Part shown: positions 38,785 through 55,419 of the stretch, one piece after another
How the letters are laid out: each line of letters starts with the position of its first letter
How positions within the stretch are numbered: position 1 is the first letter of the stretch
Assembly: GCA_964581515.1 (NCBI GenBank)
Contig: CAZOOV010000007.1
Span: forward strand, 12,698-76,697
Length of the DNA stretch: 64,000 bases
Direction of reading: 5' to 3'
DNA from: an uncultured Methanosarcinales archaeon
GTDB taxonomy: Archaea > Nanobdellota > Nanobdellia > Woesearchaeales > JACJVV01
The notes under the pieces: generated by a model
Database searches by the model: none
What the model saw: only the letters and a program-made list of their open reading frames with translations
Told to the model about the DNA's origin: nothing
Translations under genes and position numbers: made by a program

Positions 38785-40497
38785 TCAGCCGCCTCCTATC
38801 TGAGATTCAATCATCTCATTTGTCTTCTGTATCAATAAAGATCGGTAGTCCCTAAAATAGCTTGGAGGAAGTTCTCTCATTATCTCTCCAGGAGAAGTCA
38901 TCTGGTCAAATAATAGATATAATGCATTTAGTGCAAAAGGTTTTTGCTCTCCTCTTTTGAATATTTCTTTCATCTTTATTCTTCCCATTGGATCCTTATT
39001 GCATATATCAGCTATTGCAAGTGCATGTTCTTCATCATCCTGCTGATGGATATATAATTCAATGATCGGTTTTCGGCCGTAAAATCCTGTGCCTTCGCAA
39101 GTAGGACAAAGATTACCATTCATCTTCCCTGTGCTTTCTGCAACTTCAGGAATCATCTTCCTTGCCATGAATTCCTCATATTCTTTATCTTTCTCACCTT
39201 CTTTTGGAGGTTGGAAGAAATATTTAACTTCATCATCGCTCATCTGTCTGGTTGTAAGGCAATCAGGACAATTCTTTCTTATCAATATTTGAGAGATTAC
39301 ACCTAAAAGTGAATCATTCATTATTGCACCGTCGACGCCAAGGGCAGCCAGTCTTGTCATGGCACTGACTGCACCTTTTGCATGCATCGTAGACACCATT
39401 AAGTGTCCTGTTTGGGAGGTATCGAAGAGGTATTTGGCAGTATTACTGTCTCTTGCCTCTCCTATCATTATGACATCTGGAGCTTGCCTTAAACAATTCT
39501 TAAGGGCAGTATAATAAGATAATAGATTCTCCCCTAGATCCTCTTGTTCTTTTGCAACTACTTGGAATGGTAGTGCACCTCTAAGTCTGTATTCTACAGG
39601 ATCCTCAAATGTTATCTGTTTCTCTTCATAATTTGTCATCTCTGCCATCTCATTAAGAAGACTGCCAACAGTCGTACTTTTTCCTGTGCCTGTCTTTCCT
39701 GTAACAAGAATGACTCCGCTCTTCTCTTTAATTAGGTCTTTTACATTTGTTTCATCTTCTTTATTGAATCCTAAATCACCTAATGTGAACTCTATATCCT
39801 CTGTTTTTAGTATCCTTATGACAACGCTATCTAATTTCTTTCTGGATGTGCCTTGTGCTGCACCTGAATTTGTCTGCATCGCTGATACCCTATAGAATGT
39901 CTCAGAATTCTCTCCATTATAGAAACTTCCTTCTGTTGCAACTTTGCTTTGCTTCCTGCTTTCTTTTTCTACAATCTTTTCTTCAAGATGCGTTGTAAGC
40001 TTTTCCAACTGGTCAAGTGTGAGACTGGCAATATCTCTTAGCCTGCCATCAATCTTCATCTGTACTACGCCTGTACTGCATCTGGTTCTAGGATTGGGAC
40101 ATATATATACATCAGAACACCTCATTTCCTCTCCTACCTTGAGAAGTTCGCTGGCATATTCTTCTGTTTTTGAAGGATCACCAATACCATATCCAAGATC
40201 CTTTTTGCCTAATGCATCTTCAAGGTTCAATACCTCTCTCAGGAATGCAGATGCTGTAACCTGTTCTGCATCGACTTGTTCTACTTTTACGCCCTTCTCT
40301 TGAAGTATGAACATCAGCTTGTCCTGGAGCTCAATATCATCGGGATTGCCTTTGTATGTTATCAGATGTAATCTCTTGCCTGTTGTTCCGTCTTCGATCT
40401 TCTTTAGTAAGAAATCCTTAAGCTGTTGGTTGCTATCAGTTGCACCTAAATATGCATTATGTAGTTCTACTTCATCATCAATTGCCATATATAACAC
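38785..40497 (-). CDS. Type II/IV secretion-system ATPase, GspE/PilB family (with C-terminal tetracysteine)
   Basis: Walker A VTGKTGTGKST, Asp/Walker B VIMIGEARD, His box HLMVSTMHAKGA, CPDC...CPTC tetracysteine. Confidence 0.75.
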   Translation of the reverse strand: MLYMAIDDEVELHNAYLGATDSNQQLKDFLLKKIEDGTTGKRLHLITYKGNPDDIELQDKLMFILQEKGVKVEQVDAEQVTASAFLREVLNLEDALGKKDLGYGIGDPSKTEEYASELLKVGEEMRCSDVYICPNPRTRCSTGVVQMKIDGRLRDIASLTLDQLEKLTTHLEEKIVEKESRKQSKVATEGSFYNGENSETFYRVSAMQTNSGAAQGTSRKKLDSVVIRILKTEDIEFTLGDLGFNKEDETNVKDLIKEKSGVILVTGKTGTGKSTTVGSLLNEMAEMTNYEEKQITFEDPVEYRLRGALPFQVVAKEQEDLGENLLSYYTALKNCLRQAPDVIMIGEARDSNTAKYLFDTSQTGHLMVSTMHAKGAVSAMTRLAALGVDGAIMNDSLLGVISQILIRKNCPDCLTTRQMSDDEVKYFFQPPKEGEKDKEYEEFMARKMIPEVAESTGKMNGNLCPTCEGTGFYGRKPIIELYIHQQDDEEHALAIADICNKDPMGRIKMKEIFKRGEQKPFALNALYLLFDQMTSPGEIMRELPPSYFRDYRSLLIQKTNEMIESQIGGG

Positions 40498-40655
40498 CTA
40501 TTTTACTTTTTTTAATGTTTACTTAGGAAATATATGCAGACAATTAATTTCTATTGCGGACAAAGTACACAGTGTACACAAAAAAGTTTCAAAAGGAATT
40601 AATAATTAAATTATTGATGAAACCTTATTAAAAATTTATAAAGCACAGGAGCATC

Positions 40656-41306
40656 TTGATATTTATGAGGGGCTTAGAAGATTATCAAAGACTCATTAGG
40701 AAATTAGAAATAGAAGCATTTCCTGAATTAGCAGAAGATGATTTCTCAATGAACCATATTGATGATGGTAAGAATGTATTTTTTACACCGAATGCCCATT
40801 TCTCTCCTAAACATCCATTATTGACTGAAGAGATAATCACGGATTTAAGAGAGAATAATAAAAACCTGTTAAGTGTTGGTTCTGGTCCTGCTTATCTAGA
40901 ATTATTATTAGTAAAAAAACTAGGCATTAATTTAGAACAGTTAACTTTAACTGATATTTCTAATGAATATTTACCATCTGGTTTTGAGTCACATTTATTT
41001 GATATGTATGAAGAGTGGCCTAGTTTTGGAAAACTTTTTGATTATGTGATATTTCCAGAGTCTGTTTTAATAAATACAAGATTTAAAACATCCTCTGAGC
41101 GTAGACAAGGATTATATCATATTATTTCAAATTCCTTAGATGTAATGAAAGAACAAGGTGAGATAAGGATTAATGGCCATTGTCAATTATCTGATAATGT
41201 ATGTAAAGTAGCGGATAGATTAGTGCATAAATATCCTTGTGTGAAAGTAACTTATTATGATTCTGAATTATTAACAGTTACTAAAACAAGAGTAGAATCA
41301 ATATAA
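40656..41306 (+). CDS. Putative SAM-dependent methyltransferase-like protein
   Basis: LLSVGSGPAYLELLL (GxGxxxxxE/L) motif. Weak. Confidence 0.4.
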   Translation: MIFMRGLEDYQRLIRKLEIEAFPELAEDDFSMNHIDDGKNVFFTPNAHFSPKHPLLTEEIITDLRENNKNLLSVGSGPAYLELLLVKKLGINLEQLTLTDISNEYLPSGFESHLFDMYEEWPSFGKLFDYVIFPESVLINTRFKTSSERRQGLYHIISNSLDVMKEQGEIRINGHCQLSDNVCKVADRLVHKYPCVKVTYYDSELLTVTKTRVESI

Positions 41307-41378
41307 TAATAACTAATAATAATCGAAGATTATTAAGCATTGAAATTAAAATTTCAATATAATAATAATAATAATTTA
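41307..41378. repeat. Intergenic ~70-bp repeat element, copy A (contains palindrome ATTGAAATTAAAATTTCAAT and a (TAA)6 tract)
   Basis: aataactaataataatcgaagattattaagcattgaaattaaaatttcaatataataataataataa. Reverse complement recurs at 52731-52822 with 2 mismatches. Confidence 0.6.
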
Positions 41379-41792
41379 ATAGTATGGTTTAGGCTTAGAC
41401 ATCAAATAATATGTCAGTGAGAAATACTGCATCCAGGGCTTGTATGACTTGTAGATAAAGATGTATTGTACAGCGTCGCTGAGCCAATGAAGCAGGAAGC
41501 CAATAGCTACAAGGAAAAGATAATAATGTATGAAGGATGCAAGTATGATGAAAATAATTATGGGTTCTATTGTGTGGAAAATAAACATATGTGGTCTGTG
41601 GAGCTTGAGTTCTCTTTTGCTCCATTTGATTATCTTTTTTGGGCTAAGTAGTTTTTCTTTGAATAAGATATGGATTACATGATCTATATCTATGAGAATT
41701 CCACTAAGCCCTACTATCATGAGTTCTGTATTGTTCCTCTTGAAAGGATAAAAGAGGAGCATGTTCAGGAAAAAATGGACAAATATATTCAT
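41376..41792 (-). CDS. Membrane protein, possibly DUF457-type membrane-bound metal-dependent hydrolase
   Basis: IDIDHVIH and LLHWLSD motifs in TM context. Confidence 0.4.
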   Translation of the reverse strand: MNIFVHFFLNMLLFYPFKRNNTELMIVGLSGILIDIDHVIHILFKEKLLSPKKIIKWSKRELKLHRPHMFIFHTIEPIIIFIILASFIHYYLFLVAIGFLLHWLSDAVQYIFIYKSYKPWMQYFSLTYYLMSKPKPYY

Positions 41793-41836
41793 AGAAATGT
41801 TTTGATATTAAGAATTTAAAAGATTTATTCAAAAAT

Positions 41837-42706
41837 TCAGTCTTTCTCTAATGGTTGAGTTCTAAGGTATAGATTACATACAGCTTCAGGTCCATAGACA
41901 TAATTTTTTGCCTCTTCTGGCATACCTTTTAGTCTTGCCTTGTCTGCTGCACGGGCCAAGCTGCCGTAAGTAGCATGAGTTACAAGAGGAGCAACAGCAA
42001 AGCTTGCCATTGCACATCCAACGAAACAAGTTGCAGCACCTGCTGAAAGTCCTATTGTTTTAACAAATTCAGGCATTTCAGATATGAACGGCGTCTCTTT
42101 TGTGAATTTTACAGTATGATAGACCAAACCTTTATACTGGTCAAATCCTGGATTAGTAGTTGCAACAGTAGCACATAAATCAAATATCCCATATCCTATC
42201 ATCCCGAATATTGCAAATACTGGGGAAGTCTGTGCAAATTCAGCAGCTGAATAACTGTTGATCCATTTAGGAACCATCCCTCTCTTTTCTCCCATGATAT
42301 TATCTGATAAAATATGCGATAAGGATCTTACATTATCCATATCTTGCGTAGTTCCATTGAATAAGGTCTGGATGCCATCAGCTGTTGCATATGCAGAAGT
42401 GAATTCAATGCCTTCATCTGTTGGTGAAGACCAGATGCTCCATGCTCCTTTCTTTGTCCTTATATCCTCTCTTAGACTTGAATAGAATTCTTCTGCAGCT
42501 TTTGCAATGTCATCAGTATTGTTCCATCTTCTTGCCTTATCTAAATGTCCAGCAGGATATCTTTCTTTAATGTCTTCAGTTGTCACTTCACGTCCTAATC
42601 TGCTTTTCTCAAGATCTATCCATGCTGCTGAGAATTCATCAAGATAAATCACTGAAGTACCTTTCCTTGCCAGATAAGCTATTCGTGGCTTGCTTTGTTC
42701 TCTCAT
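41837..42706 (-). CDS. Hypothetical protein
   Basis: ORF only, 289 aa. Confidence 0.45.
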   Translation of the reverse strand: MREQSKPRIAYLARKGTSVIYLDEFSAAWIDLEKSRLGREVTTEDIKERYPAGHLDKARRWNNTDDIAKAAEEFYSSLREDIRTKKGAWSIWSSPTDEGIEFTSAYATADGIQTLFNGTTQDMDNVRSLSHILSDNIMGEKRGMVPKWINSYSAAEFAQTSPVFAIFGMIGYGIFDLCATVATTNPGFDQYKGLVYHTVKFTKETPFISEMPEFVKTIGLSAGAATCFVGCAMASFAVAPLVTHATYGSLARAADKARLKGMPEEAKNYVYGPEAVCNLYLRTQPLEKD

Positions 42707-42771
42707 ACTGATATAATGAAGTTGTTTCTGACTTTTTAAACTTATATATCCTCAAATATCGACAACAGCAT

Positions 42772-44538
42772 ATGAAAACTTATAAAATACAGATAATATT
42801 TCTGTTTTATATGGGTTATGATGATGAAGAACAAGAAGATCTGGAAGAACGAACCAGTTCGAGCAGTTCAAGTAGTTCCAGTGGTTCGGGGAATTCTATA
42901 AATCCTATCTTGCCATTTCTGCCTATGTGGGCTGCTATTATGATGATGTTCACAGTAACATCAATTAATTCTAATAGGAGCAGCTATAGAAGCAGTTATG
43001 ACGATGATGAAGATAAGGTCCATGTCCATCCTACTTTCTCACAAGAGATTGATGAGAGCAATATGACCCATGCTGAGAAATTGAAGAAGATAAGCTTAAG
43101 CCAGAATTATGCTTCTGCCAGAGATGATGATTTTTATATCCATGTTGAACCAAGAGTTGCAGGACAGACAGCAGAGATAACTGTTTGGCAACAAGGCGGA
43201 CTTAAAGGGCTTGTCGAGAAGATCAGGCTTTACGAAGATGGTAAAGAGATTGCAACATCCAAGCATGGGATGTTGACGCATACTGTAACACATACAAATG
43301 CTGGAGAACATTCTTATAATGCATATATCACAACAGACAGGGATTCTGCTGCTACTTACAGGATTGAAGTTGATTTCTCAGGAGAAAGAATAGATTTCAA
43401 GCCATATTTCCAGTCTTGGAGCACATCTGGAGAGAAAGCTGGAAAGGCTGCAACTGTTCACGTGCAAGGTAAGGATATAGGAGATGATAATGGCATTGAG
43501 AGGATCGTGCTGTTTGAAGACGGAAAGCAGATAGCTGAATTCACAGATGAGACCTGGCACCATCATACTGTCAAGGCAGATTCTCCTCAATCGCACACAT
43601 ATCATGCTGAAGCTTATGACAAGACAGGAAACAAGATCGTTTCAGGCAAAGAGAGGATAGACTTCTTAGGTGATGCGCTTCCACCAGAGATATCATGGTT
43701 CAGCACTTCAGGCAAGGAGGCAGGGAAAACGGCAATATTCAGCATCAGTGCAGATGATGATGACAACCATGATGAGAATGCAGGAATAGAATCAATAGCT
43801 CTTTACGAAGATGGAAATGTCATACACAGAAGAGTTGGAGAAAGCCTTACACACACTGTTGTTCATGATAATGCAGGAGATCATACTTATCATGCTGTTG
43901 CAAGGAATAAAAATGGCAAGACTGCAAAAAGCGATAGCGAGACAATACATTTCATAGGAGAAGCAATGCCGCCTGAGATAAACTGGTTCAGCGGACCTTA
44001 CAGCAAAAAGGCAGGAAGGACTGCTGCATTCTCAGTAAGCGCTGATGATGATAACAATTATGGCGACAATACAGGTGTTGCCATGATAAGATTATATGAA
44101 GACGGAAAAGTGATTGCCTCAAAAGAAGATGACTGGACAACATTTGTTGTTGAGCATACTGATTCTGGAAAGCATACCTATCAGGCAGAGATAATCAATA
44201 CTGCTGGCAAGAGCACATTCAGCGAGAAGACCAGCGTAAGATTCAGCGGAGAGCATATTGCACCAGATGTAGGCTGGTGGAGCGCACATTATTATGATGA
44301 TGAGAAGATAGCAAGGTTCAGTGTTGATGGAAAAGATACATACAACCATGGAGATTCTGCTGGGATTGCAAGGATGGTGCTATTTGAGAATGGAGTGCCT
44401 ATAAAGACTGAAGAAGATGACGATTCGCTTGTTGCTGTGCTTGAAAGGGCTCCTGGGAGATATAAGTATCATGTTGAGATAACCAACAAAGGCGGGAAGA
44501 CCACAAAGACAGAGACAAAGACTATTGCTTATAAGTAA
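42772..44538 (+). CDS. Secreted/membrane-anchored protein with Ser-rich segment and about five ~100-aa Ig-like tandem repeats
   Basis: Repeated modules GERIDF...WFSTSGKEAGKTA...DDDNH.ENAGIE.I.L(Y/F)EDGK.I...HT..HAV. N-terminal S9 run and hydrophobic helix PFLPMWAAIMMMFTV. Confidence 0.55.
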   Translation: MKTYKIQIIFLFYMGYDDEEQEDLEERTSSSSSSSSSGSGNSINPILPFLPMWAAIMMMFTVTSINSNRSSYRSSYDDDEDKVHVHPTFSQEIDESNMTHAEKLKKISLSQNYASARDDDFYIHVEPRVAGQTAEITVWQQGGLKGLVEKIRLYEDGKEIATSKHGMLTHTVTHTNAGEHSYNAYITTDRDSAATYRIEVDFSGERIDFKPYFQSWSTSGEKAGKAATVHVQGKDIGDDNGIERIVLFEDGKQIAEFTDETWHHHTVKADSPQSHTYHAEAYDKTGNKIVSGKERIDFLGDALPPEISWFSTSGKEAGKTAIFSISADDDDNHDENAGIESIALYEDGNVIHRRVGESLTHTVVHDNAGDHTYHAVARNKNGKTAKSDSETIHFIGEAMPPEINWFSGPYSKKAGRTAAFSVSADDDNNYGDNTGVAMIRLYEDGKVIASKEDDWTTFVVEHTDSGKHTYQAEIINTAGKSTFSEKTSVRFSGEHIAPDVGWWSAHYYDDEKIARFSVDGKDTYNHGDSAGIARMVLFENGVPIKTEEDDDSLVAVLERAPGRYKYHVEITNKGGKTTKTETKTIAYK

Positions 44539-44585
44539 AATAGCTCAATTCTTAGTTAATTTTGTCACATTTAAGTAGTAACAGA

Positions 44586-44601
44586 CCGAAACATTTATAA
44601 A
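44586..44601 (+). promoter_or_regulatory. Archaeal BRE/TATA promoter (CGAAACATTTATAAA), leaderless start at ATG 44630
   Basis: Same 15-mer recurs at 47178-47192. ATG at 44630 lies ~26 nt downstream of TATA centre. Confidence 0.4.
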
Positions 44602-44629
44602 TCGATTTATGATTAGAACATATACTAAA

Positions 44630-45463
44630 ATGCATGTCTCAACTGAAATAAAAAATCAAGTCAGAAGCATTGAGAGCGAGATAAGTAAAAGAAAAGAAAG
44701 TGCTTCTGTATTGAGAAGAAAAAAAGAAAGATCTGAGAATAGACTCGAAGATATGACTAAAGATTTTGGTCTAAGGGAACACTTATTTTGCGGTCGTTTT
44801 GGTGGAGACAGGAGAGGAGTTGCAAAAGCTAGAATTCTAAAAGGATATATTTCAGATTATGATTCTAAAATAAGAGGTGCAAATAGGCTTGTTGCTGAGT
44901 TTGAAAAGAATATCGATACTGCAATTGCACAATACCTTTCAACAGGTGATGATGCTTATAGAAGACTTGACAGAGCATATAAAAAAGCAAGTTATATCAG
45001 AGAACAGACTTCTTATTTCATAGGTAGGATTGATGATGCGTTATCTGAGATAAGCGATGCAGAAATGATGGAAACTGTTGACCTTTTTACAAAAAATAAA
45101 GGGATATCACTTCTTTCAACACTAGAGAATTCCGAAGCAGAAGACGCTGCAAATGATGTTAAAGACGCAATCCCTGCTTACCAAGCAAAATTAAACGAAT
45201 ACGATGCATGGCTTGATAAAAAACCATTGCAAGGTCTTGCAGAGATTGATATTGGAGATGGTATTGATTTAATATTTGATCTTGCTTTTGATGGATTTGA
45301 TTTCATGAGTATATTCACATTATCTAGTTTAAGTGATGCTGAAGACCAGCTTAATGAATTAAGAGATAAAGTTGTCGATATAAAAAGAGAGTTAGATAAG
45401 CATTACAAGCAAGCTGATGATAATAGACAAAGATATATCGATAATGTAAGGAGAGAATGCTAA
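44630..45463 (+). CDS. Hypothetical helical protein, tandem paralogue 1 of 3
   Basis: Shares motif with paralogues 2 and 3 (YLSTGDDAYRRLDRAYKKASYIREQT). Charged coiled-coil-like N-terminus. Confidence 0.5.
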   Translation: MHVSTEIKNQVRSIESEISKRKESASVLRRKKERSENRLEDMTKDFGLREHLFCGRFGGDRRGVAKARILKGYISDYDSKIRGANRLVAEFEKNIDTAIAQYLSTGDDAYRRLDRAYKKASYIREQTSYFIGRIDDALSEISDAEMMETVDLFTKNKGISLLSTLENSEAEDAANDVKDAIPAYQAKLNEYDAWLDKKPLQGLAEIDIGDGIDLIFDLAFDGFDFMSIFTLSSLSDAEDQLNELRDKVVDIKRELDKHYKQADDNRQRYIDNVRREC

Positions 45464-46191
45464 TGGCACTTGCTGAAACTGAAGCACGAATCTGTACTCT
45501 TGAAGCATTAATACAATCTACTAAAGATTATGTTAGTGCATTAAGTATACAGATTGCTGTCACAAGAGATCTGCTTGTGCAATCAGAAGCAGTAAAAAAT
45601 AATAAAGATTCTAGTTTTAAGAAAGCATTAGGGATCGGTTCTGATTTTATATCTTACAGAAGAAGTGAAGCTAGCGGTTATGAAAAAGAAGTTTCAAAAG
45701 CTAATAAATTAATTCCAGGATATGAAGAAGAATTACAAAGACATCTGCAAGAGTATGTATCAAGCAATGATTCTGAATATCAAGCACTAGAAAGGATTGC
45801 AGAAGAGATTATGTTGATGCGTAGAGAAACAAATAAGATTATATCACTAGCAGATTCTGCATTAAATTATGGTAGTACAGAAAAAGACAATTACAGGATG
45901 ACTGAATTAAAAAGTGCAAAAATAAAATATGATGATTATCATTCTCGGTTTAATCAATTCATAAGAAAGTTAGGTTCTGCATATGAAGAAATTAGTGAAA
46001 TAGGCAGAGACTTAAGTCTAAATTATAGATTTGAGAACTCATATTCTAATGAGATAGAAGTTCGTGATTATAGAGATGCACTTATAGAATTAAAAGATAC
46101 ACTTGAAAGACAAACAAACGCATGCCAAGATAGAATGGCTGGAAGAATACAAAATGCAAGAGAACAGTTCGCAGCAAAGAGACAGCAGTAG
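45457..46191 (+). CDS. Hypothetical helical protein, tandem paralogue 2 of 3
   Basis: YVSSNDSEYQALERIAEEIMLMRRET. ATG overlaps upstream stop by 7 nt. Confidence 0.5.
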   Translation: MLMALAETEARICTLEALIQSTKDYVSALSIQIAVTRDLLVQSEAVKNNKDSSFKKALGIGSDFISYRRSEASGYEKEVSKANKLIPGYEEELQRHLQEYVSSNDSEYQALERIAEEIMLMRRETNKIISLADSALNYGSTEKDNYRMTELKSAKIKYDDYHSRFNQFIRKLGSAYEEISEIGRDLSLNYRFENSYSNEIEVRDYRDALIELKDTLERQTNACQDRMAGRIQNAREQFAAKRQQ

Positions 46192-46192
46192 A

Positions 46193-46948
46193 ATGCTTAT
46201 CCCCGATAAGGTTAAAGCAGAGATAGCTACTTTGGACACTCTTATTGCTGATACAAGGGGTGCTAATTGTGCAATGGAGACTCAAAGAGAGGTTACACAG
46301 ACACTTGTAAACCAGATGGAATCTGGAGTCAGTGCAAGAGAAATGTACTTTGGTCTAATATTCAGAAAGAATAAAGAGACAGTCAGAGCGATTAAGGCAC
46401 TTAAGCATGAGATGTATGTGCTTGATACTGCTGTAAAGGCAAATAGAGAAAGACTTCCTAAATATGAACAAGCAATCAATGAATCTGTTGTAATGTACTT
46501 ATCTACTAGCGACGAGAGATATCAAGGATTGCAAAGAACTGCTGATGAAATATCAAAACTTTTAGCTGTTGGTAAAGTACTAAAAGATAAGACTCTAAGA
46601 GCAATAAAAAAAGATAATTATGCTTCTGGAAGCAATACATGGATAAAAGATGTAAATAGATATAAAATAAAATTTGCAGCTATGGTCGATATATGTAATG
46701 ATTATATGGGTCAACAAGCAGGACTTCCTTTTGAAAAAAGAAGAGTAATTAGTGGTGATGAACTTCGGAACAGATACCCTATTGATTCATCATTCAACTA
46801 TGAAAAAGGAGTAAGAGGGCTTGATGGGTTCATGTCTGATGTAAACAAAGTCATGGAATTTCAATTGAGCCAGATACAAACACAGATGAATGCATATGCA
46901 AAACAAGCAATTACAGAGTGTAGAGCTGACCCTGTAGAAGTAAGATAG
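46193..46948 (+). CDS. Hypothetical helical protein, tandem paralogue 3 of 3
   Basis: YLSTSDERYQGLQRTADEISKLL. N-terminus MLIPDKVKAEIATLDTLIADTRG aligns with paralogue 2 N-terminus. ATG 1 nt after upstream TAG. Confidence 0.5.
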   Translation: MLIPDKVKAEIATLDTLIADTRGANCAMETQREVTQTLVNQMESGVSAREMYFGLIFRKNKETVRAIKALKHEMYVLDTAVKANRERLPKYEQAINESVVMYLSTSDERYQGLQRTADEISKLLAVGKVLKDKTLRAIKKDNYASGSNTWIKDVNRYKIKFAAMVDICNDYMGQQAGLPFEKRRVISGDELRNRYPIDSSFNYEKGVRGLDGFMSDVNKVMEFQLSQIQTQMNAYAKQAITECRADPVEVR

Positions 46949-47008
46949 ACTGATTCTTATTATATCTTAATTATTAGATTATTAGATTATTAAATTAATT
47001 TTTTTAAG

Positions 47009-47175
47009 TTAAGGTTGTTGACCTTAGCTCATGTGAAATTAAGAAATTTTTCTAACTTAAACTCATTGAGTTTAAATCACGTGAAATTAAGAAATTTCTC
47101 TAATTTAAAGTCGTTGACTTTAAATCACGTGAAATTAAGAAATTTCTCTAATTTAAAGTTGTTGACTTTAAATCA
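47009..47175. repeat. 3.5 x 48-bp tandem repeat; each unit is a variable-sequence palindrome (8-9 bp arms) plus a conserved 28-29 nt core (ATCACGTGAAATTAAGAAATTTCTCTAAT) that itself contains GAAATT-N4-AATTTC
   Basis: Arms read as AAGGTtgtTGACCTT; TTAAACTCAtTGAGTTTAA; TTAAAGTCgtTGACTTTAA; TTAAAGTtgtTGACTTTAA. Substitutions in one arm are mirrored in the other (compensatory). Confidence 0.7.
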
Positions 47176-47177
47176 AC

Positions 47178-47193
47178 GCGAAACATTTATAAA
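47178..47193 (+). promoter_or_regulatory. Archaeal BRE/TATA promoter (CGAAACATTTATAAAA), leaderless start at ATG 47216
   Basis: TATA centre ~26 nt upstream of ATG 47216. Identical core to the 44586 promoter. Confidence 0.45.
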
Positions 47194-47215
47194 ATAGCTC
47201 GGTTTTGGCTTAATT

Positions 47216-47620
47216 ATGTTTACATATAAGAAAATCACAATCATACAATCAAGAAGACCACCTAAGCAGAATATCAACGATAAGTTGCAAGCGCTTGCTA
47301 ATTCTCTTGGTCTTTTTAACCTTCGAGATAAAGATAATAGCTGTTTTAGGATATTTATAGAGCTGATTAAGGCTGCAAAGACAGAACAACAGCTTACAAG
47401 TGATGAACTTGCATATAAACTTGGCCTTTCCAGAGGTACAATAGTGCATCATCTGAACAAGCTGATTGAGTCAGGACTCATAATAGTGAAGAAAAATAGA
47501 TATTTCTTAAGAGTAAACAATTTAAAACAGCTCATTTCAGAAGTTGAAAGAGACCTTGATAATACGATGAGAGATCTTAAAGCTCTTGCTGGAGAACTCG
47601 ATGACCAGTTAGGTCTTTGA
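47216..47620 (+). CDS. Winged-helix (ArsR/MarR-like) transcriptional regulator
   Basis: LAYKLGLSRGTIVHHLNKLIESGLIIVKKNRYF: HTH recognition helix plus wing. 134 aa. Confidence 0.55.
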   Translation: MFTYKKITIIQSRRPPKQNINDKLQALANSLGLFNLRDKDNSCFRIFIELIKAAKTEQQLTSDELAYKLGLSRGTIVHHLNKLIESGLIIVKKNRYFLRVNNLKQLISEVERDLDNTMRDLKALAGELDDQLGL

Positions 47621-47742
47621 TTAAATTAGTTGAAATTAGACAATAATATCAAATAATTGATTTTGGTTATTAAAAATCTTGATTATAAGATTACTTAAGT
47701 GTAATAAATGCAATAAATATAATAGATAAAGAGGATGAGAAA

Positions 47743-50700
47743 ATGGCAAAAAAGTTCAAATCAGTTGATGGAAATACAGCTGCAGCAAATGTAGCATATG
47801 CATATAGTGAAGTAGCTGCGATATACCCGATAACACCTTCTTCTCCTATGGGAGAGTCTGCTGACTCATGGTCAGCTGCAGGAAAGAAGAATATATTCAA
47901 TCAAATTGTTCATGTACAAGAGATGCAATCAGAAGGAGGAGCTGCAGGAGCAATACATGGTTCACTTACTGCTGGAGCACTTACTACAACATTTACAGCG
48001 TCACAAGGACTCATGCTGATGCTTCCAAATATGTTCAAGATTGCAGGCGAACTTCTGCCTTGCGTATTTCACGTATCTGCAAGATCACTGGCATATCAAT
48101 CATTATCTATCTTTGGCGATCATTCAGATGTCATGACTGCAAGAAGCACAGGTTTTAGCATGCTTGCTTCAGGCAGCGTACAAGAAGCACAGGATATGGC
48201 TGCAATAGCTCATCTTTCTTCAATTGAAGCAAGACTTCCTTTCTTACATTTCTTTGACGGATTTAGGACAAGTCATGAAGTACAAAAGATAGAGACTATC
48301 GATAATGAAACATTGAAATCAATGTTTAACATGAAAGCACTTAAGGATTTTAGAAAAAATGCACTTAATCCTGAACATCCAAGTTGTAAGGTAGGTGCAG
48401 AAAATCCCGATGTATATTTCCAAGGAAGAGAAAGAGCAAATAAATATCATGCAAGGATACCTGGTATTGTAAGGAAATATATGGATCTTTACGCAAAAAA
48501 GACTGGAAGAAAATATGGGTTGTTTGATTACTGTGGAAGCAAAGATGCTGAAAAAGTAATAATCATGATGGGAAGCGGTGCTGATACTGCAGAGGAAGCT
48601 GTTAATTATCTTTCTGAGAATGGAGAAAAAATAGGAGTACTTAAAGTAAGATTATACAGGCCATTTTCTGTTGAGAGTTTTATAGGTGCACTACCTGATT
48701 CTGTAAAAAAAATTGCTGTTCTTGATAGAACAAAAGAATCTGGAAGCGTAGGTGAACCATTATATCTTGATGTAGTAGGTGCGCTGAAAGGAAAAGATAT
48801 TACTATTATTGGTGGAAGATATGGTCTTTCAAGCAAAGAGTTTACACCAAGCATGGTTAAGGCAGTATTTGCTCATCTCGACGGAAAATGCACACATGAT
48901 TTCACAGTAGGGATTGATGATGACCTTAGTAAAACTTCAATTGAAGTAAAAGAAGAGATAGATACAGAACAGAAAGGTGTTGTAAGATGTAAATTCTGGG
49001 GATATGGAAGCGATGGTACAGTATCTGCTAACAAGAACTCAATAAAAATAATCGGGGATAACACAGATAAGTATGTACAGGCATATTTCTCATATGATTC
49101 AAAGAAGTCTGGAGGAATCACCGTATCACATTTGAGATTCAGCGATAAGCCTATACAGTCAGGATATCTTCTTAACAATGCAGATTTTATTGCACTTCAT
49201 AAGCCCTCATACATAGGTAGATATGATATACTTGCTGGCATTGCAGATGGTGGAACATTTCTCTTAAATACTCCTTTCAAAGGTAAAGAAATATTTGAAA
49301 GTTTAACTGAAGATATGCAAAAGACAATAATTGACAAGAAGATTAGTTTCTATGCAATTGATGCAACAAAGATATCTAAACAAGTTGGTCTTGGAAATAG
49401 GATCAATACAGTGATGCAGGCAGCATTCTTCAAAATATCAGGAATTATCCCTGAAAAAGATGCTATAAAACTTATCAAGGACGCTATTGAAAAACAATTT
49501 AGCAAAAAAGGAGAAGAAATTGTCAAGATGAATTGGGAATGTGTTGATAATACTGTTGCTGCACTAGAAAAAGTAGAAATACCTGCAACAGTTGGTAAAT
49601 CTGTTCCAATGCTTAAATTGCTTCCTGATGATGCAAGTGATTTTGCAAAAGAAATCATAGAACCTACAATGAGGCTTAAAGGAGATGAGATCCCAGTCTC
49701 AAAGATGCCTTTAGATGGTTCAGTTCCAACAGCGACGACAAAACTTGAGAAAAGAGGAGTTGCTGATATGGTTCCTGAATGGATACCTGAGAAATGTATA
49801 CAGTGTGGGAGATGTTCACTAGTATGCCCGCACGCTTCAATAAGAATTAAACAAATGGAAGCAGGTGATTTGAAAGGCGCACCAGATACATTTACAACAC
49901 TTAAAGCAATGGGAAAACAAGAAAAAGATATGAAATTCAAGGTGCAAGTTTATGCAGAAGACTGCCAGGGATGTACTTTGTGCGTTAATGATTGTCCTGT
50001 AAAAGATAAAGCACTAAAAATGGTCCCTATTGAACAAGCAAGAGAGAAAGGAGAAAATGAGAATGAAAAGTTCTTTGACGCACTACCAGATAATGTACTT
50101 GACGGTGCACCTGAAGGAACTGTAAAATGGACTCAACTCCAACAACCTTTGTTTGAATTCTCTGGTGCTTGTGCTGGTTGTGGTGAAACACCTTATGTAA
50201 AACTAGTGACGCAATTATTTGGCAGAAGGATGATTATCGCTAATGCAACAGGATGCAGTTCAATCTATGGTGGAACATTTCCAACAATACCTTATTGTCA
50301 AACAAAAGATGGCAAAGGACCTTGTTGGGCAAACTCGCTTTTTGAAGACAATGCAGAATATGGCTATGGTATGAGGCTTGCACTTAATTCAAACAGAGAT
50401 ATGCTACATAATCTTATATCTGAACTTATCGCGGATAAAGGGTCAGATAAGAAGATTAAAGTTGCATTTGAAAAGATAATCAGCATGTGGAATGATAAAA
50501 CATTAGAGGCTGAGAAAGCAGCTGATGAGATTATAGGATTACTTCCTGATGCAATAAAGAACTCTGATAATGATAATAAAGAGAAATTACAGAGGATATA
50601 TGAATCAAGAGATTTCCTTGTCGACAAAAGCGTATGGATCGTTGGAGGAGACGGCTGGGCTTATGATATAGGCTACGGCGGACTTGACCATGTACTTGCT

Positions 50701-51261
50701 CAGGGAAAAAATGTAAATGTCCTTGTACTTGATACAGAAGTATATTCCAATACAGGTGGACAAGCTTCAAAAGCAACACCTCTTGGTGCAACTGCAAAAT
50801 TCGCTTCTGCTGGAAAACGTTCAGGGAAGAAGAATATGGGCCTGATGATGATGACATATGGTAATGTCTATGTTGCATCAGTTGCAATGGGTGCTAATCA
50901 AAACCAGGTCGTAAAAGCACTTAGGGAGGCTGAAAGCTATGATGGACCTTCTATTGTATTTGCATACTCACCATGCATTGCACATGGTATTGATATGACT
51001 AAGACACAAGAAGAAGAGAAAAAAGCAGTCGATGCAGGATACTGGCCATTATATAGGTATAATCCTGAAAGTGAAAAACCCTTAACATGGGACTGCGGTG
51101 ATGCAAAAGTTTCTTTTAAGGAATTCTTGCTTGGTGAGAACAGGTATAGGATACTCCAAAGAGAGCATCCTGATGATGCAGAAAGATTATTTAAGTTAGC
51201 AGAAGAAGATGCAAAAAGACGTGCTGATGACATAAAAACATTAATTGGGGGTGAAAAGTGA
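47743..51261 (+). CDS. por: Pyruvate:ferredoxin oxidoreductase, single-polypeptide (NifJ/PorA-type)
   Basis: 1172 aa. N-terminal [31 protein letters not shown], internal ferredoxin [12 protein letters not shown] and [12 protein letters not shown], TPP domain [16 protein letters not shown]. Confidence 0.9.
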   Translation: [1172 protein letters not shown]

Positions 51262-51764
51262 TGGAAGTTAATGATCATTTAACAGAAGTGTTTGAATTCG
51301 CAAAAAAGATGGAGCTTGATGGTAAAGCTAAATATGAAGAAGAGCTTGCTAAAACAGAAGATCCAGGACTTAAAAGCATACTAAAAATGCTCATAGATGC
51401 AGAAGTTAACCATTATGAGGTATTTGATGCTATGCAACAGAAACACTCAAAAGAAGTAATCCATACATCACTAAAGGATGTAAAGAACATCTTTCAGGAG
51501 ATTAAAGAGAAAGGAGAAAAGATAATCACTTCTGAAGAACATGCTGATTTCTATCTGAAAGCAAAAGAGATTGAGGAAAAAGCTGAAGAGACATATAGGA
51601 AGGAAGCACAAGCATGCGAAGATGAGGAAGTCAAGAAGATACTCATTGAGATTGCAGATGAAGAGCATAGGCATGTTATTTTGATGCAAAGTCTTCATGA
51701 AATGGTCCTTAACCCTAACCAATGGGTAGAGAATGCAGAATTCAATGAAATAAATGATTTCTGA
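51258..51764 (+). CDS. Ferritin-like/rubrerythrin-like di-iron protein
   Basis: Paired ExxH motifs (EVNHYE, EEHRHV) in a 168-aa helical protein. ATG overlaps por stop (GTGATGG). Confidence 0.5.
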   Translation: MMEVNDHLTEVFEFAKKMELDGKAKYEEELAKTEDPGLKSILKMLIDAEVNHYEVFDAMQQKHSKEVIHTSLKDVKNIFQEIKEKGEKIITSEEHADFYLKAKEIEEKAEETYRKEAQACEDEEVKKILIEIADEEHRHVILMQSLHEMVLNPNQWVENAEFNEINDF

Positions 51765-51955
51765 TTTAAATAAATAATTCTTAATTTTATTTCTTTTTTT
51801 TCTTTATTAATTTCAATTGTTTTTGTTCTTTATTAGTTTCTGTTGTTCTTTTGCTCTTTATTGTTATCTATTGTTCTTGTTCTTTTTTACTCTTCATTGT
51901 TTTTTATTTCTTTTAGGAGATAAAGTTTATAAACTGAAGGATTAATTCTTTTAGT

Positions 51956-52711
51956 ATGGATTATCTACAAGCAATAGTACTTGCAATTGTGCAGGGGATA
52001 ACAGAATGGCTGCCTGTGAGCAGTAGTGCGCATCTTGCTATTGCTTCAAGAATTTTCCAGATTGAGACAAATCTTTTCTATTTTGTAATACTTCATCTTG
52101 CAACACTTGTGAGTTTAGGAATCTATTTTAGAAAAAGAATATTTAGTTTCTTTTTTGACATTAAAGGAGGGAAAATCCTTACGAAGAAAGGATGGTATGT
52201 TGTTTATGCATCTATCCCTATATTCTTAGCAGGATTTTTCTTGCATGATTTGATTGAAAGCATGTTTGTTGATTTCAGATTGATTGGTATGGCTCTTATT
52301 GCAAATGGTTTAATATTACTTAGCACAAAATTATTTAATGGTGAAAAAGAAATAACACTTCATAAGGCAATAGGTATTGGTATTGTTCAGATGTTTGCTC
52401 TTATACCTGGTATTTCTAGATCAGGTGTAACTGTATCTTCTGGTTTTTTTGCGAAAATGAAGAAAGATGAAGTCATAATGTTTTCTATGATGCTTTCAAT
52501 CCCTGCAATACTCGGTGCATTTTTATATGAGCTTTTTACAGTCCCCTATGATCCTTCTTTATCTATATTATCCATTATAGGTGGATTTATAGTCGCTGTT
52601 GGTTGCGGTTATTTTGCATTAAGGCTTTTAATTAAAAGGATAAGACAAGGAAGATTCAATGAATTCTGGAGTTATTGTATTGTTGTTGGGATTATTATGT
52701 TGTTTAATTGA
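51956..52711 (+). CDS. uppP: Undecaprenyl-diphosphate phosphatase
   Basis: QGITEWLPVSSSAHL signature, PGISRSG motif, 8 TM helices. Confidence 0.75.
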   Translation: MDYLQAIVLAIVQGITEWLPVSSSAHLAIASRIFQIETNLFYFVILHLATLVSLGIYFRKRIFSFFFDIKGGKILTKKGWYVVYASIPIFLAGFFLHDLIESMFVDFRLIGMALIANGLILLSTKLFNGEKEITLHKAIGIGIVQMFALIPGISRSGVTVSSGFFAKMKKDEVIMFSMMLSIPAILGAFLYELFTVPYDPSLSILSIIGGFIVAVGCGYFALRLLIKRIRQGRFNEFWSYCIVVGIIMLFN

Positions 52712-52729
52712 TTTTTATGATTCTTTTTC

Positions 52730-52822
<93 letters not shown>

Positions 52823-52867
52823 TTCGTGATTATCATGTTCTATAACTGAATACTTTAAAAAGGAACT

Positions 52868-54139
52868 ATGGATTTGGATTCTATCATGGCAGGACCTTCA
52901 ACATTAATAGCAGAGTGGCAACCTTTTATTGAGGGGCATCTTAGTACTTTAGAGGGTATGATACAGCCAAATGGAGCAATATCAGCAGCACCTCATGATG
53001 GTTATAGCGCATTTTGGGTAAGAGATGGACTATACGCTCTGAAAGGATTTGAATATGTAGGTATGCATTCACAGGTCAAGAAGATGATGCGCGTACCTTT
53101 TACTATTTTTCATGAACATGACATGAAAATATGCGAGGGAATTAGACATAAGCCAAATTCAAGATATGAATTCTTGCATGCAAGATATCACCCGACAAAC
53201 CTTACAGAACTTAAAGATGACTGGGGTCATAATCAATTGGATATGCTTGGATTGTTCTTGTTTGAGACTGCTGATCTTTTGAAGAAGAACATACCTATAC
53301 TGCCTCATGAAGGAAGAAGAGAAGATATTTATCTGATAAATAAAGTCACCAGATATCTAGAGACTCTAGAATGGTGGAAATGCCCTGATTTTGGTGTATG
53401 GGAAGAAGGACCAGACTTACATTCATCTTCAATAGGTGCAGTGCTTGGGGGCATGCAAAGGATCGCTGATCTTGATAACCCTCAGGTATTCTTCAATGAA
53501 AAGCAATTAGTACACGGAAGAAAAGCATTGGATAAATTATTACCACTAGAGTCTTCTGGAACAAAAAGTGTTGCTGGCAGAGAATATGATCTTGCACAAC
53601 TTAGTCTTCTGTGGCCTTTTAGAGTATGTACATATGAACAAGCAAGTACAATTATGAAAAATATAGAAGAGAATCTTGTTAGGGATAAAGGAGTCGTAAG
53701 ATATCCTAAAGACCCATATTATAATGCTGCAGATGACAGGATGAAGAAAGAAGAAGTAAATCTTCCAGGCATAGTTCTTGCACATTATGACGAAGCAGAT
53801 AAGAATTATTTTCCTTGCGCTAATGAAGGAACAGAAGCACAGTGGCCATTAGGATTTGCATGGTTAAGCATAGTGCATTCTAAATGGGCAAAAAGCGATT
53901 TTGAAAAAGGAAGGGAAAGCTATAAACTAAATCAGGAAAAAGCAAAACATTATCTTGAGAAACTTAAAGAGGTTACATTACCAGTCGATGGTTCATCTGT
54001 AGGTTATATTCCTGAACTCTATGTTGGTGACGTGCCAAATATCAATACACCTTTGGCTTGGTCAACTTCTTTTGCAGTCGCTGCAGCAGAAGCGTATAAG
54101 CAGATAGAAGATCCAAATACTGTTTCTTTTGTTAAATAA
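52868..54139 (+). CDS. Glycoside hydrolase family 15 (glucoamylase/trehalase-like)
   Basis: SAFWVRDGLYAL (GH15 WxRD motif) and FGVWEEGP (catalytic W-EE). Confidence 0.7.
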   Translation: MDLDSIMAGPSTLIAEWQPFIEGHLSTLEGMIQPNGAISAAPHDGYSAFWVRDGLYALKGFEYVGMHSQVKKMMRVPFTIFHEHDMKICEGIRHKPNSRYEFLHARYHPTNLTELKDDWGHNQLDMLGLFLFETADLLKKNIPILPHEGRREDIYLINKVTRYLETLEWWKCPDFGVWEEGPDLHSSSIGAVLGGMQRIADLDNPQVFFNEKQLVHGRKALDKLLPLESSGTKSVAGREYDLAQLSLLWPFRVCTYEQASTIMKNIEENLVRDKGVVRYPKDPYYNAADDRMKKEEVNLPGIVLAHYDEADKNYFPCANEGTEAQWPLGFAWLSIVHSKWAKSDFEKGRESYKLNQEKAKHYLEKLKEVTLPVDGSSVGYIPELYVGDVPNINTPLAWSTSFAVAAAEAYKQIEDPNTVSFVK

Positions 54140-54236
54140 ATCTTGTTAAGTATAAAAAATAGGACGATAAAATAAACAGGATAGACTGAGAAATAAATAA
54201 AATATAATGATAATATAAATAGAATAAATAAAATTC

Positions 54237-54863
54237 TTAATGTCTTCTGAAAGGATTTAATCTAGATAAATTATGTCTATCTAAATAAGATTGCGGTAAT
54301 GGCGGAGGTGTAGCTGGAGTTGCAGCAGGCGTAGGTGTCTGAGCAGGCGCTGGTCCTGGTAAAGGATCTATAATATTTTCAGCTCTCCATCTGAATTGTC
54401 TGTACAATTCTGCTGGCATCATTATCAATAACGCCATGTTCTGCTCGTCATTAAGATGAGGAATTGTACACTTAGCAATATTTTGTCTTGTGACCTTATT
54501 ATAGACTACAAAATCCATGTCCTGCAAGTATCTCTTGTCAGGTTCGTAATCAGTCGGATGTCTTATGCCTCTATGAGCCATTGTTCTTTTAGGCCGAGTG
54601 ATGTCTTTTACAAGATCAGCAATATCGCCTGCTTCATCTTTTGTAAGACCACCTATATATATCACTGGTTGATTAGCTATCTCTACATAAGTAATTGCCC
54701 TCTGGGTTGGGTTGACTGAGAAAAGGTCTTGTGTCTGTACAAGATCAATATTTGGTTCGAGTTCAGTATCTATCGTATGCGGTTGATTTGCATGATACTC
54801 TTCTGCTGGCTCAGACTTCCATAATCTTGCTACAAGATCTCTGAATACTTTTTCGTTTGCCAT
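54237..54863 (-). CDS. Hypothetical protein with Pro/Ala/Thr-rich C-terminus
   Basis: ORF. Start set at MANEKV to abut upstream gene. Confidence 0.4.
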   Translation of the reverse strand: MANEKVFRDLVARLWKSEPAEEYHANQPHTIDTELEPNIDLVQTQDLFSVNPTQRAITYVEIANQPVIYIGGLTKDEAGDIADLVKDITRPKRTMAHRGIRHPTDYEPDKRYLQDMDFVVYNKVTRQNIAKCTIPHLNDEQNMALLIMMPAELYRQFRWRAENIIDPLPGPAPAQTPTPAATPATPPPLPQSYLDRHNLSRLNPFRRH

Positions 54864-54864
54864 T

Positions 54865-55293
54865 TTATCGTTTAGTTGTAGGTTCAAACACTTTAAGGAA
54901 GACCTGCACTTGTGAATCATAAAGACAGATTCTATAGCGTTCCTGGTCTGCTGGTATTGTTCCCCTCAATGGAAGATCAATATCATCCTGGACAACGCAT
55001 TCCATATGTCTTATCAGCCTGCCTCTCATGTCTTCATATGTACCTTGAGCAGCTGTTGCTTCATAATTGAGCATCATTATTCCGCCTGCAGGATAGTTGT
55101 AGCCTGTTAAACTCAGTCCTTCAAGATCAGGCATAGTTTCAAACCTTTTCAGAGCAGGCATTTGCTGTATGAGTTTATTTCTGACTAGACCCTCATTAAG
55201 AGCTCTTCTGTTTATTGTTTCTAAGTCTAGCTCTTCTCTTTTTGGAGCTGTTGATTGCCCCATTGTTGGTTCTGTTGTACCGCCACCTACCAT
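54865..55293 (-). CDS. Hypothetical protein
   Basis: ORF only. Confidence 0.4.
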   Translation of the reverse strand: MVGGGTTEPTMGQSTAPKREELDLETINRRALNEGLVRNKLIQQMPALKRFETMPDLEGLSLTGYNYPAGGIMMLNYEATAAQGTYEDMRGRLIRHMECVVQDDIDLPLRGTIPADQERYRICLYDSQVQVFLKVFEPTTKR

Positions 55294-55419
55294 TTTGTAG
55301 GATATAAGCAGAACCTATATATAAATGTTTCGTTTTGTTACCACTAATAAGTGACTATCTTTAGAAAGATATAAATACTAGTAGTTTCAACCAACACCTA
55401 AACTAAAGGTAATGATAAA

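Follow-up and report, generated by a model that had tools for sequence, protein, structure and literature searches.

The stretch of DNA studied here (64,000 nucleotides of a woesearchaeal genome, hereafter the window) contains a 48-bp tandem array immediately upstream of a gene encoding a small winged helix-turn-helix (wHTH) protein, and we conclude that this array is probably an autoregulatory operator array for the protein, a putative stress (chaperone) regulator, with the 17-bp dyad GTTGAC-TTTAA-GTCAAC as its functional core. Among the grounds for this reading are two observations, namely, that the site is conserved upstream of the orthologous regulator genes, and that in the window it abuts the regulator's own core promoter. 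The initial annotation of the window, made from the sequence alone, had described the array and offered three possible roles for it: it could control the adjacent wHTH gene as an operator array, give rise to small hairpin RNAs, or serve as a replication or partition element. The comparative evidence favours the first of these. The regulator gene is as follows:

47216..47620, plus strand: wHTH regulator gene, 134 aa, Pfam domains HTH_20 and HTH_5, ArsR/MarR-type fold

The comparative set consisted of 80 genome loci encoding orthologues of the window wHTH gene (designated by L-numbers below). In 73 of these loci the 17-bp palindrome is found as a single copy 91–190 nt upstream of the wHTH gene, its variants matching GTTGAYYTWAARTCAAC, and the same pattern is seen in 10 of 17 independent metagenome loci. 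Outside this position, the core of the 17-mer occurs only twice in approximately 560 kb of the genome loci. In the window, one site fits GTTGAYYTWAARTCAAC, at 47161–47177, with zero mismatches, and it is the only such site in the 64 kb. A metagenome scan for closer relatives yielded loci at 62% identity or less only. The halves of the 17-mer vary independently (GAC or GAT in either), and in one sublineage GTCAAC is present in both halves; since the variation within the 17-mer is non-compensatory, it behaves as a protein operator and not as a hairpin.

The left half-site is GTCAAC instead of GTTGAC in L003, L064, L097, and L121–L125, which yields the direct repeat GTCAAC-N5-GTCAAC, and the recognition helix is unchanged there. 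The half-site GTYRAC is itself quasi-palindromic.

The position of the palindrome relative to the neighbouring genes links it to chaperones. According to Pfam, the divergent neighbour beyond the palindrome, considered for 67 loci, is GrpE in 51, HSP20 in eight, and GroES (Cpn10, then GroEL) in one. The spacing is fixed: 45 loci have 23 nt, and 19 have 25–27 nt, between the palindrome's end and the minus-strand TATATAAA. Read on the minus strand, TATATAAA is a TFB-recognition element and TATA box (BRE/TATA), CCGAAAAG TTTATATA, and the inferred transcription start falls within the palindrome. The wHTH gene is served by another BRE/TATA, placed back to back with this one. The operator is therefore placed at the start of a chaperone gene in the relatives (GrpE, HSP20, or Cpn10 for 60 out of 67 neighbours), and not in the window. 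As a dyad at the inferred start of a chaperone gene has the geometry of a repressor site, the wHTH protein is most likely a repressor of stress or chaperone genes. In L045, L060, and L069, a second operator-like site, GTTTAYNTTAAAATCAAC, is present in addition to the grpE-side site; it is located downstream of the TATA box of the wHTH gene (approximately −48 or −97 relative to the start of the gene), which provides independent evidence of wHTH self-regulation in some lineages.

Several observations on the relatives stand apart from the array. In L004–L080 (e.g., L014:3880–4000) and L089–L103, the wHTH gene is divergent from a chaperone gene, and the arrangement looks like an undescribed heat-shock regulon of DPANN archaea. 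In about 6–7 genomes (L019:3294–3788, minus strand; L039, L050, L053, L066, L080), the gene behind the palindrome belongs to an unannotated family of approximately 165 aa, MNYEK..AKTIADIFEIVKEIVREYLGLEQAGL, with no match in Pfam or NCBIfam, which makes it a candidate for inclusion in the putative stress regulon. The loci L007, L008, L020, L047, and L055 are without the palindrome and have another conserved upstream block in common, TTTAAAAATATGACGGTG with TTTCTATATAGAAA; in all of them except L047, the neighbour is a long open reading frame (ORF) with the start MAxFNPLxYEE..FYFLDGPPYTSG, whose sequence has the look of a class-I aminoacyl-tRNA synthetase. This arrangement may represent a different wiring of the regulator.

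The presumed binder of the 17-mer, judging by the gene's position, is the wHTH protein itself. It has about 2000 homologues at an identity of at least 56%, nearly all named ones coming from Candidatus Woesearchaeota, which assigns the window to a DPANN archaeon, and the family is highly conserved, with an invariant recognition helix (SRGTxxHHLNKL) and a nearly invariant Cys43. In the AlphaFold model, with a predicted local distance difference test score (pLDDT) of 79, the wHTH is followed by a 30-residue C-terminal helix. Foldseek matches of the model include MarR, OhrR, ST1889, and CadC; the closest solved folds are of the generic MarR/OhrR/ArsR/ST1889 kind, and the closest solved structure by sequence is ST1889 (2d1h).

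We attempted to place the protein in described families. The best named ones are Sta1/Lrs14 from NCBIfam, with 32.6 bits against a cut-off of 80 for NF053606 and 32.1 against 90 for NF040939; scores of about 32 bits at curated cut-offs of 80–90 led us to reject membership. Homology to Phr is unsupported, the comparison of the profile with 2p4w giving E = 0.68 over 32 HTH residues, and Phr is absent among the best 50 Foldseek matches of the model. Identity with HrcA was rejected as well: the best 25 of the 33 Pfam families matched are generic HTH families, none of them HrcA, and the operator is unrelated to CIRCE (controlling inverted repeat of chaperone expression).

Tandem Repeats Finder places the best tandem array of the window at 46997–47183 (period 48, 3.9 copies, 86% matches, no indels), with a score of 253, the highest in the window by far; the in-register copies begin at 46997, 47045, and 47093, and the last, partial one at 47141. 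Each unit has a variable palindrome, P1, whose 9-nt arms enclose a loop of GTT or ATT, and each inner unit has a second palindrome, P2, GAAATT-AAGA-AATTTC. The 28-nt constant block, ATCACGTGAAATTAAGAAATTTCTCTAA, is found exactly at 47076 and 47124 and with three mismatches at 47028, with no further copy in the 64 kb (0 expected by chance). The elements of the array and of the adjoining promoter are listed below:

46997..47044: unit 1, the most diverged unit; P1 at 47008–47028, GTTAAGGTT-GTT-GACCTTAGC; degenerate operator at 47017–47033, GTTGACCTTAGCTCATG; P2 at 47035–47050
47045..47092: unit 2; P1 at 47056–47076, CTTAAACTC-ATT-GAGTTTAAA; degenerate operator ATTGAGTTTAAATCACG; P2 at 47083–47098
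47093..47140: unit 3; P1 at 47104–47124, TTTAAAGTC-GTT-GACTTTAAA, with 9/9 pairs; degenerate operator at 47113–47129, GTTGACTTTAAATCACG; P2 at 47131–47146
47141..47178: unit 4, promoter-proximal; P1 at 47152–47172, arms TTTAAAGTT/GACTTTAAA; intact operator GTTGACTTTAAATCAAC at 47161–47177
47179..47193, plus strand: BRE/TATA of the wHTH gene, CGAAAC ATTTATAAA; CGAAACATTTATAAA

The anatomy given by the initial annotation largely agrees with this description: the 48-bp array is real, the P1 arms are those that had been listed for the four units (47008–47172), and a search of the 64 kb for the 28-nt core, which had been proposed there, returns positions of the array only. The interval that had been assigned to the array, 47009–47215, does cover the repeat and also takes in the promoter, as the repeat proper stops at approximately 47177–47183. 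Likewise, the statement that the array ends 5 nt before the BRE/TATA is true of P1, and the gap is filled by the 17-mer.

The inner units contain GTTGA-N7-TCAC, that is, the same left half-site and a right half that is one base shorter, and continue with GTGAAAT and P2 where the final unit has the BRE/TATA. A BRE/TATA matrix built from 69 Woesearchaeota chaperone promoters gives 47179–47193 the best score in the 64 kb (16.3), and the intact operator at 47161–47177 abuts this element. The BRE begins 37 nt before the ATG at 47216, and this position is conserved in L081, L083, and L086. Because the distance is the same as at many other genes of the window, the wHTH mRNA is probably leaderless, with transcription probably starting at or near the ATG. 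Throughout the window, the best BRE/TATA lies 37–39 nt before the start codon of many genes (e.g., 57267, 11893 on the minus strand, 28493 on the minus strand, and 14132), and leaderless mRNAs seem to be the rule in this genome.

The 14 closest lineages (71–100% protein identity) form one clade, and in all 14 the operator stands flush against the TATA box. Six members of this subclade have arrays of the same architecture, and the other eight have a single site. The arrays are as follows:

window: four units, period 48 bp
L081: three units, period about 45 bp
L083: two units, period about 56 bp
L086: two units, period about 57 bp
L001: three units, period 43 bp
L002: two units

The inner-unit signature GTTGA-N7-TCAC[GA] is common to all six array genomes and was found only upstream of this gene in the 795 kb searched; P1-type hairpins are likewise restricted to the arrays. 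Its TCAC form, with one nucleotide deleted, is present in all inner units of the six genomes, which the protein tree places in two separate clades. Across the array genomes, only the columns GTTGA, TCA, and the linker TAA are invariant; compared with the clade-wide 17-bp palindrome, the invariant blocks GTTGA and TCA(A)C are its half-sites, which overlap the right arm of P1. Moreover, individual units can be traced between genomes: unit 1 of the window and the first units of L081 and L083 are positional orthologues with GACCTTAGCTCAC in common, unit 3 is 87% identical to unit 2 of L081, and unit 2 is 82% identical to unit 1 of L086. Overall, the inner units are 75–87% identical between genomes, compared with 47–62% for synonymous third positions of the adjacent gene, these being gapped and ungapped measures, respectively, and thus not strictly comparable. 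That the inner units are more alike than synonymous sites points to purifying selection.

These data bear on an explanation in which function is restricted to the last unit, tandem duplication has left the inner units as a neutral minisatellite, and the compensatory changes result from intrastrand template switching (quasi-palindrome correction). It agrees with the eight related lineages that have a single operator and neither P1 nor P2, with the unit length differing between genomes, and with the symmetric insertions that enlarge P2 in L083 and L086, typical of hairpin-templated synthesis; P1 is weakest in the first units, its mismatches are mostly single transitions, as expected if they await correction, and the wobble pairs show no strand bias. 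At the same time, neutrality does not sit well with the unit-specific identity across genomes, above the conservation of synonymous sites, nor with the TCAC form shared by all inner units of genomes from two separate clades, nor with P1, which is best preserved in the functional, promoter-proximal unit in all six genomes. On balance we regard this explanation as unlikely, while giving it some weight.

Further contigs encoding the same protein were compared for copy-number variation between strains: L108 and L110 have an identical four-unit array, and L111–L113 end inside the array. At L109:780–870, an identical wHTH gene is preceded by a single unit joined to GC-rich DNA unlike the rest of the genome; this is probably an assembly chimera, and the repeat evidently breaks or mis-joins short-read assemblies.

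The arms of P1 vary from unit to unit, and the changes are compensatory: C-G to G-C between units 2 and 3, and G-C to A-T between units 1 and 3. For 13 distinct units from the six genomes, 91.5% of cells are in standard pairs, and five out of nine pairs have changed on both sides (19 cells). None of 500 shuffles reaches the observed values, and sliding the partner by one column brings pairing to 47–58%. A left arm forms on average 7.8 of nine Watson–Crick pairs with its own right arm versus 6.0 with those of other units, and none of 100,000 permutations is as good. The right arm of P1 comprises operator positions 4–12, so that the hairpin and the operator overlap. The P1 positions that vary are operator positions 6, 7, 11, and 12; they are free with respect to the dyad but tied to the left arm of P1, hence two separate constraints act on the same bases.

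The variation preserving complementarity, which the initial annotation had noticed in the window, is therefore genuine, recurs in five other genomes, and is statistically strong. The further claim that selection acts on a folded structure and not merely on a protein-binding site survives in part: it is backed by the covariation of P1, but the only invariant blocks are the half-sites of a 17-bp operator of the protein type, which had been overlooked.

Two simpler origins of the left arm were considered. It is not a direct copy of the right half of the operator, as it follows position 6 by complementarity rather than position 12 by identity. A conserved minus-strand TATA box, left from an ancestral module of TATA, 23 nt, and operator, was rejected as well, since the arms in L081, L083, and L086 contain G/C; the left arm of unit 4 in the window fits a minus-strand TATA loosely.

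The P2 sequence is wholly different between genomes, with palindromy kept: the arms are GAAATT/AATTTC in the window, AAAG/CTTT in L081, AAAATAAT/ATTATTTT in L083, GAAATTAT/ATAATTTC in L086, GAAC/GTTC in L001, and AAC/GTT in L002. By these comparisons, the complementarity of P1 and P2 is kept independently of sequence, and the constraint behind it is separate from protein recognition. Candidates for its cause are a DNA-level structure competing with operator occupancy, a read-through RNA, and hairpin-templated correction in which selection plays no part; pure neutrality is disfavoured by the conservation data, and RNA by the promoter data together with the context of L001. The pattern is that expected of helices, yet covariation alone does not separate RNA from DNA-level causes.

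The first of these candidates can be phrased as P1 being a DNA cruciform or hairpin that competes with the repressor: extrusion would bury operator positions 4–12, including the left half-site, and supercoiling or temperature would tune access. Right-arm positions that are unconstrained by the dyad and yet constrained to pair with the left arm are consistent with it, as are the occurrence of P1 in every promoter-proximal unit, the AT-rich stems of 8–10 bp with loops of 3–5 nt, the lack of strand bias, which fits a constraint at the duplex level, and the association of the regulator family with heat-shock genes. The stems are, however, short for spontaneous extrusion, P1 is absent from the single-site relatives, and P2 overlaps no recognisable site. 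We assign this mechanism a low probability.

As for RNA, the array may be imagined as transcribed and acting through its P1 and P2 hairpins, between which lie conserved single-stranded linkers (AUCACGUG, UCUCUAA), with possible roles as a protein-binding or decoy RNA, a 3′ untranslated region or terminator module of the upstream gene, or a long structured leader. The covariation of P1 and the palindromy of P2 despite full sequence change between genomes would suit such a transcript, and a T-rich TTTCTCTAA or TTTTTCTAA follows each P2. Both strands of the array fold better than shuffled controls (z = −4.8 and −6.4), but any array of palindromes would do so, and thus these values do not identify a strand. 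On the plus strand, G.T pairs slightly outnumber A-C ones (seven versus five for P1; about 10 versus five with hand-counted P2), but the excess is not significant, and the wobble asymmetry was rejected as an indication of the RNA strand. Finally, there is no adjoining divergent ORF in five out of six array genomes, and all four that have gene calls (window, L081, L083, L086) show a co-directional gene upstream; in L001, the array is located between divergent genes, which speaks against the RNA reading.

The promoter data do not favour transcription of the array either. It lies upstream of the only recognisable promoter, and the BRE/TATA matrix applied to the six genomes reveals nothing conserved inside or before the arrays. 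Inside the window array, nothing scores above 0 on the plus strand, compared with 16.3 for the true promoter, and the best minus-strand score, 5.6 at 47150, is not conserved in the relatives; unit-internal promoters were rejected on these grounds, while read-through from upstream may still occur. In addition, a terminator-like tract precedes the array, oligo-T being a termination signal in archaea:

46999..47005, plus strand: T7 tract just upstream of the first unit, read from the sequence; likely terminator of the upstream co-directional gene, whose stop codon ends at 46948

The predicted single-strand hairpins are weak (with DNA parameters, −4.5 to −6.6 kcal/mol for P1, unit 3 having −6.6, and −1.7 to −3.3 for P2). 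In Rfam, the window has no match at gathering score, and the region 46900–47300 gives only chance-level ones, at most 26 bits at thresholds of 65–130. Together with the operator half-sites being the only invariant sequence blocks, this makes an RNA-acting array improbable, and the earlier suggestion of small hairpin RNAs finds no support, as the six array genomes share no unit-internal promoter and Rfam offers no match.

An array of iteron-like tandem units beside a gene for a DNA-binding protein might also suggest a replication origin, a partition site, or a mobile or CRISPR-like repeat (clustered regularly interspaced short palindromic repeats). This is contradicted by the distribution of the motif: each locus has it once, at a conserved chromosomal gene that is always the same, with no copy elsewhere in the 64-kb window, and the role in replication or partition that had been listed finds no support. 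No match to Orc1/Cdc6, Rep, ParA/B, or a transposase was found among the ORFs scanned with Pfam (38785–57149). CRISPR was rejected, in line with the initial annotation: there are no spacers, and the variable parts, approximately 19 nt, are interrelated and palindromic. The only cas-family match in the same ORFs, Cas_Csa5 within the rubrerythrin-like protein described below (20.3 bits at a cut-off of 23), is taken as chance. The whole group of explanations has a close to negligible probability. A coding repeat was rejected, too: the 60-aa ORF at 47015–47197, which runs through the array because 48 = 16 × 3, has its frame broken in L083, L086, L001, and L002.

Returning to the autoregulatory operator array, we propose the following course of events. 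A wHTH dimer would bind GTTGAC-TTTAA-GTCAAC, the conserved operator of the regulator family across Woesearchaeota, and in most lineages the protein bound at the start of the divergent grpE, hsp20, or groES gene would block recruitment of RNA polymerase. In the subclade of the window, the wHTH gene has moved next to the PFOR gene; the intact operator now abuts the BRE/TATA of the regulator's own leaderless promoter, where TFB/TBP would be hindered or modulated by a bound dimer, resulting in autoregulation. The three inner units, each with one good half-site and TCAC, may act as auxiliary sites of lower affinity that raise local occupancy or allow for higher-order binding.

Some points weigh against this proposal. 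The ground on which the protein is assigned to the site is conserved adjacency. The unit spacing is 43, 45, 48, 56, or 57 bp depending on the genome, hence helical phasing is absent and strict cooperative stacking is disfavoured. Archaeal activators, too, typically have an operator upstream of the BRE, and thus either sign of regulation is conceivable at the window promoter. A plain operator array does not predict the covariation of P1 and P2, with operator positions 6, 7, 11, and 12 tracking the left arm. Lastly, the eight related lineages manage with a single site.

A more far-reaching version would combine both constraints: the wHTH protein and its dyad would be the undescribed master chaperone repressor (grpE-dnaK, hsp20, groES) of Woesearchaeota, and in one subclade the operator would have gained a DNA-structure switch, with P1 folding over the left half-site, so that supercoiling or temperature and not a ligand would set the access of the repressor, and with tandem units multiplying the effect. 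This is speculative, and we consider it improbable as a whole.

The closest precedent for the window array, by analogy, is the operator region of Ss-LrpB from Sulfolobus solfataricus, where three regularly spaced 15-bp semi-palindromic boxes lie upstream of the regulator's own promoter; these are degenerate dyads with an A+T centre, and the protein wraps about 100 bp of DNA (PMC1802622). In both systems, the control region of an archaeal regulator gene contains its own array of dyad boxes resembling one another (about 100–190 bp), the boxes are degenerate with one of them strong, and two conserved half-sites flank a 5-bp A+T-only centre (TTGCAA-AAT-TTGCAA and GTTGAC-TTTAA-GTCAAC, respectively). 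The differences are that Ss-LrpB belongs to the Lrp/AsnC family, whereas the window protein is a small wHTH of the ArsR/MarR type; that the Ss-LrpB boxes are helically phased and the DNA is wrapped, whereas the Woesearchaeota arrays are spaced by 43–57 bp; that covarying hairpins between boxes are not described for Ss-LrpB; and that the window units are true tandem repeats, 86% identical.

Archaeal heat-shock repressors offer a second comparison. HSR1 of Archaeoglobus is a homologue of Phr and an archaeal heat-shock repressor, and heat-shock control in haloarchaea is TFB-based. Phr of Pyrococcus furiosus, a wHTH protein, has a palindrome as its recognition site and acts as a repressor of heat-inducible genes (PMC10746257). 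The putative role of the Woesearchaeota wHTH is similar, i.e., a palindrome-recognising wHTH controlling chaperone genes negatively, and the 17-mer mostly lies at the inferred start of grpE, hsp20, or groES, the Phr-type position for blocking RNA polymerase. Homology to Phr is not demonstrable, however, and the Woesearchaeota system has another operator sequence; its targets include the bacterial-type grpE (dnaK) system, and the window site fronts the regulator's own PFOR-linked operon and not a chaperone gene.

In bacteria, HrcA acts on CIRCE, TTAGCACTC-N9-GAGTGCTAA. Here too, a dyad operator precedes grpE-dnaK and groES-groEL, and grpE has the repressor gene as its neighbour, but the window regulator shows no HrcA domain among the Pfam families listed above, its operator is GTTGAC-N5-GTCAAC, and the context is an archaeal BRE/TATA. 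The Lrs14/Sta1 proteins of Sulfolobales, the best named sequence relatives, are of a similar size and fold (wHTH and a long C-terminal helix), and Lrs14 is autoregulated; the window protein scores below membership in this family, as shown above, and we know of no tandem hairpin array in it.

We found no description of the Woesearchaeota wHTH/17-mer system in the searchable literature. The array would be of a known kind, as an autoregulatory operator array, and it is attached to what appears to be an undescribed clade-wide chaperone regulator. To our knowledge, almost nothing is known about the regulation of transcription in DPANN archaea, which are uncultivated, and the locus provides a concrete candidate regulator–operator pair for them: a protein of 134 aa with about 2000 close homologues, and a 17-bp dyad at chaperone starts. 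The DnaK/GrpE chaperone system of archaea was acquired from bacteria; if the proposed role holds, the pair would govern this system and add a third kind to the heat-shock controls of archaea, next to Phr/HSR1 and the TFB-based control of haloarchaea. The array is also a rare natural case in which protein-recognition and base-pairing constraints can be separated, position by position, in one regulatory element, and it thereby lends itself to the question of whether an archaeal operator is modulated by secondary structure of DNA or RNA.

The genes downstream of the regulator gene are likely to be subject to the same control:

47743–51261, plus strand: PFOR (Pfam)
51258–51764, plus strand: rubrerythrin-like gene (Pfam), overlapping the PFOR stop codon

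No promoter-like BRE/TATA was found upstream of PFOR with the Woesearchaeota matrix (score −8.2), and the order wHTH–PFOR–rubrerythrin is conserved in L081, L083, L086, and L114, with gaps of 11–122 nt. Since PFOR has no promoter of its own, and the gene order is conserved with gaps down to 11 nt, the control region probably serves an operon, in which PFOR and the rubrerythrin-like gene are co-transcribed with the wHTH gene and are thus under the control of the array. The wHTH regulator may therefore govern an oxygen-sensitive enzyme (PFOR) together with a peroxide-detoxifying protein.

On the other side of the array, the region 42772–46948 begins with a gene for an Ig-repeat (Big_7) protein, the N-terminus of which is poly-Ser; next come three overlapping ORFs of 244–284 aa, which have no significant match in Pfam and look charged and coiled-coil-like. 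An ATPase of the type IV pilus or archaellum type (T2SSE) is encoded at 38785–40497 on the minus strand, and together these genes may form a surface-structure gene cluster.

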